Origin: Candidatus Marinarcus sp.
GTDB lineage: Bacteria > Campylobacterota > Campylobacteria > Campylobacterales > Arcobacteraceae
Assembly (NCBI RefSeq): GCF_048571275.1
Contig: NZ_CP182357.1
Location: 1,142,125 to 1,206,124, forward strand
Direction of reading: 5' to 3'
DNA: 64,000 bases
The position numbers were made by a program, and so were the translations under genes. Under the pieces are notes generated by a model. It had not been told where the DNA came from, searched no databases, and worked only from the letters and a program-made list of their open reading frames with translations. Positions within the stretch are counted from its first letter, which is position 1; every line of letters starts with the position of its first letter. This document shows, in pieces, positions 30,106 to 50,537 of the stretch.

Positions 30106-31293
30106 GTGCGAATTTTGGTCAGAGAGTTTATCAAAAAAGAGTCATCGGCGGGGCTTATCCTTATTGGTGTTACGCTCCTTGCCTTAATTTTTAAAAACTC
30201 TTTTTTGTCTGAATACTACAATAACATTTTACAAACGAATGTGACCATAAGCGTGGGTGAAATGCTTGAACTGAATAAGCCCATTTTTTTATGGATCAAT
30301 GATGGGTTAATGGCTCTGTTTTTTCTTTTAATTGGACTTGAAATTAAAAGAGAACTGCTTACGGGACATCTGTCAAGTTTTAAACAGATTGCTTTGCCGG
30401 GTTTTGCCGCTTTAGGTGGTATGCTTTTCCCTGCACTGATTTTTATATTTTTTAATTATGATAACAACTTTGCCTTGCGTGGTTGGGCGATTCCAACGGC
30501 TACGGATATTGCTTTTGCTTTGGGAATTTTGTCTTTGTTGGGTAAGCGAATTCCTGTCTCATTGAAAGTGTTTTTAATGGCATTGGCCATCATTGATGAC
30601 ATTGGTGCTATTGTGATTATATCTATTTTTTACACCTCAGAGTTGTCATATCTCTCTCTTTTATTGGCAGGTGTTTTTTTTGCCATTTTATTGCTGATGA
30701 ATAAAATCAATATTGTACGCATTACAGCATATATTATTATTGGAATATTTCTCTGGATTGCCGTTTTAAAATCGGGAGTTCATGCGACACTTGCTGGAAT
30801 TATTTTGGCATTTACCATCCCTTTAAATGTTAAAATTGAAGAACAAAAACATATCTCTCCCGCAAGAATATTGGAAAAAAATCTGCATTTTTGGGTGGCG
30901 TATTATATTTTGCCCATTTTTGCATTTATGAATGCCGGTGTGGATTTAATGAATATTGATTTTAATGATGTCATAAACCCTGTTTCAATGGGTATTATTA
31001 TGGGATTGTTTTTGGGTAAACAAATGGGGGTAATGTTGTTTGTTTTTCTGGCAGTTAAATTCAACATTGCACAGCTTCCAAAGTGTGCTACTTGGACTCA
31101 AATGTATGGCATTGCAGTATTAACAGGGATTGGATTTACCATGAGTTTTTTTATTGACTCTTTGGCGTATGATGATTCAAATATGTTTTTGCATACGGAT
31201 AAATTGGCTATTTTAGTAGGCTCAATTCTCTCTGGAATAGTAGGTTATACGATTTTACGATATGCAAAAAAGAGAAAGTTGTGTGCCATTTAA
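30106..31293 (+). CDS. nhaA: Na+/H+ antiporter NhaA
   Basis: WINDGLMALFF; GWAIPTATDIAF; AIIDD; SGVHAT; GIGFTMS. Confidence 0.96.
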   Translation: MRILVREFIKKESSAGLILIGVTLLALIFKNSFLSEYYNNILQTNVTISVGEMLELNKPIFLWINDGLMALFFLLIGLEIKRELLTGHLSSFKQIALPGFAALGGMLFPALIFIFFNYDNNFALRGWAIPTATDIAFALGILSLLGKRIPVSLKVFLMALAIIDDIGAIVIISIFYTSELSYLSLLLAGVFFAILLLMNKINIVRITAYIIIGIFLWIAVLKSGVHATLAGIILAFTIPLNVKIEEQKHISPARILEKNLHFWVAYYILPIFAFMNAGVDLMNIDFNDVINPVSMGIIMGLFLGKQMGVMLFVFLAVKFNIAQLPKCATWTQMYGIAVLTGIGFTMSFFIDSLAYDDSNMFLHTDKLAILVGSILSGIVGYTILRYAKKRKLCAI

Positions 31294-31797
31294 GGCAGAT
31301 AAATTTTCCCATTTAAGATTTTTATTTTTCCCTCTAATTCATAAACAAATGTTTTTTCAGCATAATTTTTGATGGCCTCGTCGTAGTTGGGATTGTTTTT
31401 ACAATACTCTAAAAACGCATCTTTTTCTTGGCAAAGGGTATGTCCTGATAGTTCCATAACAAACTCATCTATATCATAAATGGCTTGGGCTAAACCCTCT
31501 TTTAAAAGCTGGTTGGTTCCTGCACTTTGATTAATTTGGTGAGGCAAAACATAAATTTTTTTGTTCATATTTAAAGCAAACTCTACGCTTCTCATGCTGC
31601 CACTGTTTAAATCGGCTTGCGTTACAATTAAAATATCTCCTAAAGCTACAACGATTTCATTGCGTGCTACAAAACTCCATGGAGTTGCAAGAAAATCTGC
31701 ATCATACGCACTTAAAATCAACCCCTCTTGTTCAATGGCTGCAATGAGTTTTTTATTTGTAGCAGGGTACTTTGTATGTAAACCACAGGGACTGACC
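31290..31797 (-). pseudogene. dprA: dprA 3' fragment, separated from its 5' part by the transposon
   Basis: Reads (V)SPCGLHTKYPATNKKLIAAIEQEGLILSAY..WSFVARNEIVVALG..ADLNSGSM; joins in frame with the 50267-50537 fragment. Confidence 0.93.
31793..31797 (+). repeat. 5-bp target-site duplication TGACC (left copy)
   Basis: Identical TGACC at 50267-50271, each directly flanking the terminal TGT/ACA. Confidence 0.95.
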
Positions 31798-31843
31798 TGT
31801 CATATACAAAAACAAACTTAACTCTAAATCACAATATTTAGCC
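31798..31843 (+). repeat. tnsA-proximal transposon end with putative TnsB sites
   Basis: TGTCATAT, then ACAAAAACAAACTTAACT (31806-31823), then a degenerate copy 20 bp on (31826-31843, 11/18 match to the right-end site). Confidence 0.85.
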
Positions 31844-31942
31844 AGTCTTGAAAGATTTCCAACATTAATTAAGTTAAATAGATTATATTAAAAAGGTTAA
31901 ATAAATTGAAAAATATACAAAATAAATTAAACATCCTATCTA

Positions 31943-31971
31943 TTGTAAATCTTGACGAGATTTTATATAAT
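31943..31971 (+). promoter_or_regulatory. Putative sigma70 promoter for a leaderless tnsA transcript
   Basis: TTGTAA-17 nt-TATAAT ending 6 nt before ATG 31978; no Shine-Dalgarno in between. Confidence 0.55.
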
Positions 31972-31977
31972 TTAGAT

Positions 31978-48555: not shown

Positions 48556-48559
48556 TATA

Positions 48560-50209
48560 CTATTTAATTTTTGTATATCTTTTAATGCCTAATTCTAGGT
48601 TTTTACGCCACAATTTAATTTTTTCTTCACTCATATCAATTCCATCATGCTTTGTCATAAAAAATTTACTAGCTCCAATGGCTTTTACATCTTCTAACAT
48701 TTGCTTATTGGTCTGATTTTTTAATATATTTATATTAAGCATAGTTTGAACTTGTGATTCACTAAATATTTCAGTAGATATAAAATACCAAGTATTCTTT
48801 TTCCAATAAATGTTATGCTCTACTTCAATAAAGTTTATAATTATATTCTTATAATTAAAATAGCCATATATCAAACGTCTAGCAACTTCTTTTTTAAAGT
48901 CTATAAAAAACTTATTAATATTTGATTCCTCAAAATTATCTAAATCAATAATCTCACTAATAGAAAATTCTTCAATCTTATTATTATCAATAAATGACTC
49001 AAACAATTCAAAAAAGTTTTCTATTTTAAAAGAGTTTTTTGTAATATCGTCATCAAGTAACTTTTGTTTAACTCTATTATTTCCGCTACCTTCACCTGGT
49101 CTATCAAGAGATTCATCTACTTCTTCATCAGTAACCTCATATGTTGTTCTTATATTATTTTGAATAATCTCATTTTTTTGAATGTTAATTTCTGAAAAGT
49201 CATATATATTTTCAACTTTAAATGATTCTTTGGATGTGGTATGTTTATCTGATGGTTTCTTTTCAGTAATTTTACCAGTAATGTGGGAATCTTTTTTTGG
49301 TATTTTTTTAGGTTCATCAGGATCAATTTTTTTAGTTTCTTCTGTTGTATTCTCTTTATAAACCTCGTGTTTTAAATTTTTAAAGTTATATGGTATTGTA
49401 TCTCCATAAATATGAGTAATTAATATAACATCTCTTTCATCAAAGGTTTCAAAATTATCTTTTGAATAAACATTTCCAAGATGGATTATTTTGCATTGAA
49501 TAATAAAATCTTCATGATCTTCAAAAGGAAAGCCCATATGAATTGGAATATAAAGGTTATCTATATGTTTATACTTTTCCTTGTAATGCGTTGTTTGTTT
49601 ATAAAAAAACATAAAATTTTTTTTCGATATCTCATTTGTAATCATTCTTGCAATTAAAGGTACTTGCTCATCTTTTAAAGTTTTTTTAGTTTTAATATAC
49701 AATGTATCGCCTATAAATTTGAAACCACTTTCTTCATAATATAATGTTGAGAATGATCCATTAGATAAAGCATTTTTTATACTTGATGACACAAAGTAAT
49801 ATCTATTTGCAACAACATAATTGGGTATCATATAAATATATCTTTTAGTTTCATAGAAGTAGCATTTTTGATTATAAAAAGCATCGCCTTCTTCGATTCC
49901 TATGTCATTAGGAAAACGAATATATTTTTTTATTTGAAAAGAATTTTTACTTGTAACTTTCTTTTTTGGAACAAATAACTTTTCGATTTTCATTCTATTC
50001 TCATGTTCTAAAGCATAGTTAGAATATACATTACCTAAAATATATTTACCTCTTAATTCTTCTGGTAATAGTAGTTCTTCATATTTTTCTAAACTATCAA
50101 TATCTTGAAAAATCACTTTATATCTATGAGGGTATTGGCAATTAATCTCATTAACTGCGATTAGTTTAAATTTGTTATTTGGATAATCTTCAAAACATTT
50201 TATTTTCAT
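48560..50209 (-). CDS. tnsE: TnsE-like target selector at the distal end of the element
   Basis: YMIPNYVVANRYYFVSSSIKNAL resembles the TnsE IPxLELARxxF motif; LIARMIT..F, GFPF, acidic linker and C-terminal IINFIEVE; ATG 50209 with GGAG RBS. Confidence 0.65.
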   Translation of the reverse strand: MKIKCFEDYPNNKFKLIAVNEINCQYPHRYKVIFQDIDSLEKYEELLLPEELRGKYILGNVYSNYALEHENRMKIEKLFVPKKKVTSKNSFQIKKYIRFPNDIGIEEGDAFYNQKCYFYETKRYIYMIPNYVVANRYYFVSSSIKNALSNGSFSTLYYEESGFKFIGDTLYIKTKKTLKDEQVPLIARMITNEISKKNFMFFYKQTTHYKEKYKHIDNLYIPIHMGFPFEDHEDFIIQCKIIHLGNVYSKDNFETFDERDVILITHIYGDTIPYNFKNLKHEVYKENTTEETKKIDPDEPKKIPKKDSHITGKITEKKPSDKHTTSKESFKVENIYDFSEINIQKNEIIQNNIRTTYEVTDEEVDESLDRPGEGSGNNRVKQKLLDDDITKNSFKIENFFELFESFIDNNKIEEFSISEIIDLDNFEESNINKFFIDFKKEVARRLIYGYFNYKNIIINFIEVEHNIYWKKNTWYFISTEIFSESQVQTMLNINILKNQTNKQMLEDVKAIGASKFFMTKHDGIDMSEEKIKLWRKNLELGIKRYTKIK

Positions 50210-50220
50210 CAATATTCTCC

Positions 50221-50266
50221 AGTTAAGTTTTTTGTTGTTGAGTTAAGTTTTTTGTTGTATATGACA
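50221..50266 (-). repeat. tnsE-proximal transposon end with two tandem TnsB sites
   Basis: AGTTAAGTTTTTTGTTGT at 50221-50238 and 50241-50258 (20-bp period), then ATATGACA. Confidence 0.92.
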
Positions 50267-50271
50267 TGACC
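50267..50271 (+). repeat. 5-bp target-site duplication TGACC (right copy)
   Basis: Matches 31793-31797. Confidence 0.95.
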
Positions 50272-50537
50272 ATAATGGTGTTGTTTGCACCTGCTGCTTG
50301 ATGTGCAATGGCATCCACGCCAAGTGCTCCCCCACTTACAATGCAAAAACCTGCAGAGGACAATTTGTTTGCGATGGTATGGGTGAAAATTTTTGTACTG
50401 GGAAAAGGATGTCTGGTGCCCACAATGGAGACTTTGGGTTTTTCTAAAAGTTGCGTATTTCCAATATAAAAGAGTTTTTCGGGATATTTTTGCATCACAT
50501 CAAGTGCATTTACATGAAAATCTAAACTCTGAATCAT
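50267..50537 (-). pseudogene. dprA: dprA 5' fragment
   Basis: YPEKLFYIGN; KVSIVGTR; IVSGGALGVDAIAHQAA; NTIMV; after the junction the frame continues into the transposon end and stops at 50223. Confidence 0.93.

Follow-up and report, generated by a model that had tools for sequence, protein, structure and literature searches.

A Tn7-like transposon inside dprA of a Candidatus Marinarcus genome, and support for dprA as a programmed attachment site of its clade

The window analysed here is the whole stretch of 64,000 nucleotides from Candidatus Marinarcus sp. (contig NZ_CP182357.1, positions 1,142,125 to 1,206,124 of the forward strand), in which the gene dprA is split by an 18.5-kb, apparently intact Tn7-like transposon. 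The element occupies positions 31798-50266 (18,469 bp), has 5'-TGT...ACA-3' termini and is bordered by a 5-bp direct repeat, TGACC, its target-site duplication (TSD). Its tnsA-proximal end begins at 31798 with TGTCATATACAAAAACAAACTTAACTC, its opposite (left) end finishes at 50266 with ...GAGTTAAGTTTTTTGTTGTATATGACA, and 25 of the first 27 positions are identical between the two ends when compared in inverted orientation. The homologous ends of three related elements (loci L001, L008 and L011 of the survey described below) have the same start point as the tnsA-proximal end of the window element. The G+C content of the element is 24-29%, against 32-35% in both flanks. The junctions comprise the following features:

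31290..31797, minus strand: 3' part of dprA (codons 92-259 and stop), adjoining the tnsA-proximal end; 100% tblastn match to residues 92-259 of the restored DprA; PF02481
31793..31797, no strand: first TSD copy (TGACC), from junction reading
31798..31824, plus strand: tnsA-proximal ("right") terminal inverted repeat, 5'-TGT start, with one 17-bp TnsB-site-like repeat at 31807-31823
50221..50266, minus strand: left terminal inverted repeat, ending ...ACA-3', with two tandem 20-bp TnsB-site-like repeats (CAACAAAAAACTTAACT at 50221-50237 and 50241-50257)
50267..50271, no strand: second TSD copy (TGACC), from junction reading
50272..50543, minus strand: 5' part of dprA (codons 1-91), from tblastn and the restored frame; likely start ATG 50537

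When the element and one TSD copy are removed, by fusing 31290-31797 to 50272-50543, a single minus-strand open reading frame (ORF) is obtained. Its length is 259 codons if counted from the first ATG and 257 if counted from ATG 50537, and it reads ...NNTIMV up to the junction and SPCGLHTKYPATNKKL... after it. The restored protein matches the Pfam family DNA_processg_A (PF02481, E 2e-52) and is 64% identical to the DprA of Arcobacter sp. F2176 (258 amino acids, aa) in an end-to-end alignment without a gap where the two parts join. This alignment begins at the Met of ATG 50537, which is likely to be the start. A first-pass annotation had claimed that excision of the element with one TSD restores a continuous 257-codon DprA, and the junction, the Pfam match and the F2176 alignment all confirm it.

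The transposition genes and the gene just inside the left end are:

31906..32637, plus strand: tnsA, 243 aa (Pfam Tn7_TnsA-like_N 3.5e-13 and TnsA_C)
32624..34480, plus strand: tnsB, 618 aa, DDE transposase (Pfam Mu-transpos_C 2.6e-11, rve 4e-7)
34473..35414, plus strand: tnsC, 313 aa, TniB-type AAA+ regulator (Pfam TniB 2.2e-59)
35411..36538, plus strand: tniQ, 375 aa, proposed dprA-site selector (Pfam TniQ 4.3e-19)
48560..50212, minus strand: gene of a probable TnsE-like protein, 550 aa, just inside the left end and reading inward, a position conserved in relatives

The dprA-targeting relatives have TnsB proteins with 54-69% identity to that of the window. Searching with a profile built from 37 TniQ homologues gave matches to solved chains of TniQ and TnsD with E values of 1e-10 to 3e-6 (1e-8 for TnsD 8v32), and the alignment of these homologues displays invariant Cys/His columns typical of zinc ribbons. 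The 550-aa protein gave no match in Pfam, PADLOC or a PDB sequence search; it has homologues at 52-62% identity, one of which bears the UniRef name "TnsE C-terminal domain-containing protein". It was modelled with AlphaFold 2 from a 13-sequence alignment, with a predicted local distance difference test score (pLDDT) of 70; a single-sequence AlphaFold model (pLDDT 32) was discarded. Searching the PDB with this model using Foldseek, the six best matches were all to the TnsE C-terminal domain (5d17/5d16; probability 0.89-0.99, E 0.02-0.18, template-modelling score 0.51-0.56 on the target), the remainder of the list being noise, and the N-terminal 285 residues were without a match. On the modelled fold we assign the protein as TnsE-like with moderate confidence. 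The transposition module had no megablast match among plasmids.

Related elements were sought through TniQ. About 38 homologues were found at 38-53% identity to the window TniQ, none of them near-identical. Scanning genome contigs with the single TniQ protein yielded no relatives, and the 37-sequence alignment was required; it recovered 7 loci in species-representative genomes and 80 in metagenomes. Flanks were mapped by tblastn with the window proteins against all loci, followed by direct reading of the junctions, and evidence for the left side was taken from contigs retrieved by way of the TnsE-like protein. The 10-kb flanks of L001-L034 do not reach the left ends of these elements, and an inverted-repeat search for them yielded nothing.

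No fewer than 15 other distinct loci have a related element in dprA, always in a single orientation and at one of two exact positions. At site A (codon 92), shared by the window, L001, L008 and L011, the TGT... end abuts dprA in the junction context V/I-L/S-P/A-C/S-G, and the TniQ proteins are 49-51% identical to that of the window. Site B (codon 59) accounts for eleven loci in total. On the tnsA-proximal side it is seen in L002/L024, L003, L004, L028, L034, L041 and L045, with TniQ proteins 35-45% identical and the junction context x-A/K/E-L-...-VSG; on the left side, L088 (Aliarcobacter butzleri GCA_001010585.1), L097, L098 and L100 have a 5' fragment of dprA that runs to codon 59 and there meets the left end. 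Both ends are present on one contig in L098, with a 5-bp TSD, TCAAA. The dprA gene is always on the strand opposite to tnsA, so that the tnsA-proximal end faces its 3' part. In the two TniQ groups nearest to the window, all members with a readable flank lie in dprA.

The hosts, by record title, are Sulfurovaceae, Sulfurovum, Sulfurimonadaceae, A. butzleri and metagenomes, while the window DprA is closest to those of Arcobacteraceae. The host DprA fragments of the relatives are no more than 45-59% identical to the window DprA; the insertions are independent or belong to long-separated lineages, rather than being copies of one event. A chance insertion without specificity, to which the single copy in the window would by itself conform, is refuted by the recurrence at these two positions in one orientation in divergent hosts, and we give it practically no credence.

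Two of the site B loci display further peculiarities. In L098 (55-8482) a small decayed element lies between both dprA halves: TnsB is truncated, tnsC and tniQ are absent, and LysE and AraC genes stand between the left end and the TnsE-like gene. In L004, about 3.3 kb (3272-6546) separate the dprA-side element end from tnsA; 17 kb further, at 20422, there is another end-like sequence with that orientation. This arrangement may correspond to nested or tandem elements.

Aligning the host DNA outward from the tnsA-proximal end, we observed no more than one conserved block per group, within +28 to +70. For site B it extends from +28 to +70 (GT.AG.GG.G..GC.ATGGG.GT.GATGC.AT.GC.CA) and encodes VSGxAMGVDAIAH. 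For site A it extends from about +28 to +49 (TAYCCNGC...AAYAAA), encodes YPA(V/T)NK and is the sole conserved host block across the four junctions. Within DprA, no motifs are more conserved than these two, and their distance and orientation match those of the sequence bound by TnsD at attTn7. The corresponding feature in the window is:

31748..31769, minus strand: candidate TniQ recognition sequence in dprA, encoding YPATNKK, 28-49 bp from the insertion (putative binding site)

A neighbour-joining tree of TniQ places the site A elements in one clade, the site B elements in a basal grade and a further set (group C, below) in a separate clade. The choice of site follows the TniQ phylogeny. The notion, advanced in the first-pass annotation, that dprA is a programmed attachment site was to be checked by mapping the flanks of elements with homologous TnsB/TniQ, and the recurrence, the common orientation and the two exact codon positions speak for it. 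As judged from these sequences, the view that dprA is a programmed attachment site of the window element's clade, with two sub-sites following TniQ phylogeny, is supported.

In the mechanism that we propose, TniQ would recognise a short, strongly conserved stretch of dprA coding sequence and recruit TnsC, and TnsAB would insert the element about 28 bp from the recognised sequence, with the tnsA-proximal end facing it and with a 5-bp duplication. The two sites of the clade would be A, at codon 92 (the YPA(V/T)NK block, used by the window element), and B, at codon 59 (the VSGxAMGVDAIAH block). The only genes common to the dprA-targeting elements are those of TnsABC, TniQ and the TnsE-like protein. 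Alternatively, the site could be picked by the TnsE-like protein, whose gene is also conserved in the family, or by a factor that we did not recognise. Yet this protein has a fold similar to that of TnsE, and the TnsE of Tn7 recognises structures of replication rather than a sequence; homologues of the protein are also present in elements outside dprA, namely group C and more distant ones; no further gene is common to the dprA-targeting elements; and the spacing and orientation are TnsD-like. A precedent for a selector other than TniQ is the comM site of Tn6022, picked by TnsF according to the target-selector survey (PMC10293859). On balance we regard such a selector as improbable. Because the dprA-targeting elements have no other gene in common and the TnsE-like gene is also found outside dprA, TniQ is the best candidate, and by analogy with TnsD we infer that it is the DNA-binding selector of the dprA site.

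Our overall explanation is therefore that a Tn7-like transposon was placed in dprA through the site-specific TniQ pathway of its family, to which we assign a probability of roughly 0.8. Several points weigh against it. The window junction at site A is shifted by 1 bp relative to the other three, and the tnsA-proximal end has a single recognisable TnsB-site-like repeat against two at the left end. No close host relative with an empty site was found in the protein collection, in which the best DprA match is 64% identical, so the pre-insertion sequence is reconstructed rather than observed and could be checked at the protein level only. The role proposed for TniQ comes from the TnsD analogy and from exclusion. 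Finally, some relatives lie elsewhere. The left side is outside dprA in L092 and L094, and group C comprises 8 loci with readable flanks upstream of tnsA (L016, L017, L020, L021, L027, L029, L043 and L051), with TniQ 39-44% identical and a TnsE-like gene, but no dprA nearby.

The neighbours of the group C elements are varied (DUF262-like, metallo-beta-lactamase-fold and IS21-type genes), and their upstream ORFs revealed no shared family, no common flank and no nearby tRNA gene in the 8 loci. In an inverted-repeat search, the signal of their ends was lost in AT-rich noise. The first-pass annotation had held that homologous elements at unrelated loci would contradict site specificity; such loci exist in group C but were not found in the window's own clade. 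Two single observations concern other positions: the left end in L092 (6700-6985) lies just beyond an apparent CRISPR array downstream of cas9-cas1-cas2, and the host dprA 5' fragment in L089 stops at codon 78 (GVDA), possibly a third position.

More distant relatives, with TniQ 25-36% identical, adjoin another transformation gene, comM, with their tnsA-proximal end:

2328-2981 in L005, minus strand: 3' part of comM, beside the tnsA-proximal end
5649-6341 in L007, minus strand: 3' part of comM, beside the tnsA-proximal end
5592-6302 in L062, minus strand: 3' part of comM, beside the tnsA-proximal end
2915-3643 in L065, minus strand: 3' part of comM, beside the tnsA-proximal end
5657-6361 in L086, minus strand: 3' part of comM, beside the tnsA-proximal end

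This flank matches Pfam Mg_chelatase from profile position ~90 and Mg_chelatase_C, and begins just before the Walker B motif LFFDE. The elements of the comM group carry restriction-modification cargo directly after tniQ and no TnsF-like gene; L007 has in addition an unassigned ORF of 392 aa. The comM flanks of these distant relatives indicate target switching between conserved genes within one TniQ family. Going by the flanks, this family includes lineages aimed at both transformation-specific recombination genes, dprA and comM. The parallel with comM drawn in the first-pass annotation thus holds in that distant TniQ relatives flank this gene, but its analogy with Tn6022 is incomplete, no TnsF-like protein being evident.

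With dprA split and no replacement copy in the element or the window, where tblastn with the restored DprA detected no second dprA homologue, DprA-dependent transformation of the host would probably be lost, unless another dprA copy exists outside the window. Beyond the transposition genes, the element carries the following cargo:

36909..37652, plus strand: Endonuclease I homologue, 247 aa, with a hydrophobic N-terminal leader (Pfam Endonuclease_1 5.6e-37)
37652..39401, plus strand: receiver-like gene and HATPase_c gene, resembling the candidate defence pair PDC-M43 A/B (Pfam; PADLOC)
40540..47278, minus strand: type I Wadjet operon jetABCD (Pfam JetA, DUF4194, SbcC_Walker_B, JetD_C; PADLOC)
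45881-47278, minus strand: jetA (PADLOC JetA1)
45237-45881, minus strand: jetB (PADLOC JetB1)
41666-45277, minus strand: jetC (PADLOC JetC1)
40540-41706, minus strand: jetD (PADLOC JetD1)
47279..48079, minus strand: ParB-like protein, 266 aa (Pfam ParB_N 2e-17, HTH_ParB)

The N-terminus of the Endonuclease I homologue is MKLLSVILLLIVNLSFA, and L010 has a 51% identical homologue 4.2 kb downstream of tniQ. The PADLOC scores of the pair are 1.8e-10 (PDC-M43A) and 8.5e-21 (PDC-M43B); the JetA1, JetB1, JetC1 and JetD1 matches have E values down to 3e-171, all four jet genes being in one operon. The Endonuclease I with its leader and the type I Wadjet are annotated cargo directed at DNA entering the cell, beside a split dprA. 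Two small ORFs are without a family match: one at 36665-36946 (plus strand, 93 aa) directly after tniQ, the other at 48088-48297 (minus strand, 69 aa) directly after the TnsE-like gene, where relatives carry dprA.

The split gene and this cargo raise the question of why dprA is the site. Blocking transformation might be the selected purpose, as the first-pass annotation suggested, the loss of dprA preventing removal of the element by recombination with element-free DNA and so protecting it from curing by transformation; the same was proposed for AbaR islands in comM. Sister elements target comM, the other transformation-specific recombination gene, and the AbaR insertion in comM was reported to manipulate transformation and to promote island fixation (PMC11441513). 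The window element has no dprA of its own, its Endonuclease I and Wadjet act on incoming DNA, and natural transformation is documented for A. butzleri, which belongs to the same family as the host (PMC8308473). The same paper states, however, that dprA is non-essential for transformation in Campylobacter jejuni and Helicobacter pylori, and the complete dprA copies carried by seven relatives would restore DprA. This rationale is thus doubtful in our view.

These seven relatives (L040, L089, L092, L097, L098, L099 and L100/L101) each have a complete dprA of their own, located immediately inside the left end, so that loss of DprA function is not constant in the family. The window element and L094 have no such copy. 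The element-borne copies are located as follows:

11644-12429 in L089: element-borne dprA
8642-9427 in L092: element-borne dprA
5598-6380 in L097: element-borne dprA
5915-6700 in L098: element-borne dprA
1767-2552 in L099: element-borne dprA
3003-3785 in L100: element-borne dprA
6787-7221 in L040, minus strand: element-borne dprA, placed and oriented as expected, downstream of cargo

In L089-L091, L092/L093, L097, L098, L099 and L100/L101, a complete dprA of 260-261 aa comes directly after the TnsE-like gene, and its start overlaps the TnsE-like stop by the same 22 nucleotides (nt). This overlap is kept where the TnsE-like proteins are 53-62% identical to that of the window, and its presence across diverged lineages indicates an old, maintained arrangement. 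The element copies share signatures absent from the host fragments (AGTGLDKRYP, GVPSNRWNFPLRNE and IVAYADINSGT). They have GID where site B hosts have GVD, and NR, NS or NT (NK in L100) where site A hosts have NK. In L097, L099 and L100/L101, element cargo follows the dprA copy, and the HATPase_c_3 pair found after it in L097 and L100/L101 lies in L094 between the TnsE-like gene and tniQ. The copy is therefore inside the element.

A special case is L089, whose element copy differs from the host 5' fragment of the same locus. There, positions 9516-12429 hold the left end, the TnsE-like gene and a full dprA between the host 5' fragment and chromosomal genes, without tnsABC or tniQ, and the chromosomal side includes nhaA and Mur-ligase neighbours, as in the window. 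That the full-length dprA of L089 is a native chromosomal gene was considered as a general explanation of the copies and rejected, given the cargo that follows the copy in L097, L099 and L100/L101 and the shared signatures. The L089 pattern may possibly result from a deletion by recombination between the element dprA and the host 3' part.

The copies bear on two further readings. It is possible that dprA serves as a safe harbour like glmS, chosen for its conservation; a replacement dprA would then be usual, the window element would have lost its copy and the loss of competence would be incidental. That the recognised blocks are the most conserved DprA motifs agrees with it, as does the old and maintained overlap with the TnsE-like gene alongside two elements, the window's and L094, without a copy. 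Against this, the difference could as well be a gain in the others as a loss in the window element, the inverted-repeat search did not recover the left ends of the other site A elements, and the choice of comM by sister clades is left unexplained. We hold this reading tentatively, at odds clearly short of even. An unlikely but more far-reaching scenario is that the family takes over the DprA step: it would split the host gene and, in most members whose left end is visible, install a divergent dprA translationally coupled to the TnsE-like selector, the window element being a knock-out-only variant. Were this true, RecA loading on incoming DNA could come under element control, the single-stranded DNA binding of DprA could couple to TnsE-type targeting of arriving DNA, and the element copy, by its GID and NR/NS/NT changes, may resist insertion. 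Whichever applies, the element-borne copies offer a testable case for whether an interrupted function is abolished, restored or taken over.

The site-specific placement in dprA that we favour makes this gene the second transformation gene, comM of Acinetobacter being the first, that Tn7-like elements hit systematically. Its hosts are Campylobacterota, some of them naturally transformable, and the finding supports the view of a conflict between mobile elements and transformation. Tn7-like elements build genomic islands and underlie programmable insertion tools, and each new pair of selector and site informs on how TniQ/TnsD proteins read DNA. Sister TniQ lineages that would read two conserved coding motifs of dprA and a third in comM form a natural series for the study of specificity change.

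In the full-text literature searched (subscription-only papers being outside its scope), dprA is not described as an insertion site of a Tn7-like or other element. It is not mentioned as such in the accessible parts of the survey of Tn7-like cargo and its supplement (PMC8649781), of the target-selector survey and its supplementary files (PMC10293859), of a 2025 review on transformation versus mobile elements (PMC12378983) or of two papers on intragenomic conflict (PMC4774983, PMC11472951).

Comparison with known systems shows a likeness to Tn6022/AbaR, which is also Tn7-like, disrupts a transformation-specific recombination gene from within and carries cargo islands. Tn6022, as described in PMC10293859, selects comM with TnsF, an inactivated tyrosine recombinase. 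The flanks of the window element are dprA, not comM, and none of the scanned element ORFs has a recombinase-family Pfam match that would point to a TnsF-like recombinase. The window element is thus not of the Tn6022 type.

With TnsA and TnsB, TnsC, TniQ, a 5-bp TSD, TGT/ACA termini and an oriented insertion at a fixed spacing, the window element agrees with the features that define Tn7-like transposons. The likeness to Tn7 itself lies in the heteromeric TnsA/TnsB transposase, TnsC, the TniQ-domain selector and the probable TnsE-like protein, in the 5-bp TSD and the TGT...ACA ends with putative internal TnsB sites (two recognised at the left end and one at the other), and in the single orientation with the tnsA-proximal end beside a conserved coding sequence ~25-60 bp away. 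Tn7, however, inserts downstream of an intact glmS (attTn7), whereas the dprA family inserts inside the gene and splits it. The window TniQ has 375 aa, against about 500 aa for TnsD, and the TnsE-like gene is located at the opposite end and transcribed inward, not following tnsD. Other Tn7-like elements have protein-gene attachment sites in yhiN, parE, guaC, rsmJ and others, and share with the dprA family the recognition, here proposed, of a conserved host sequence by a subfamily-specific TniQ/TnsD. The dprA family differs from them in that sister lineages use two positions in one gene and many members carry a replacement of the target gene.

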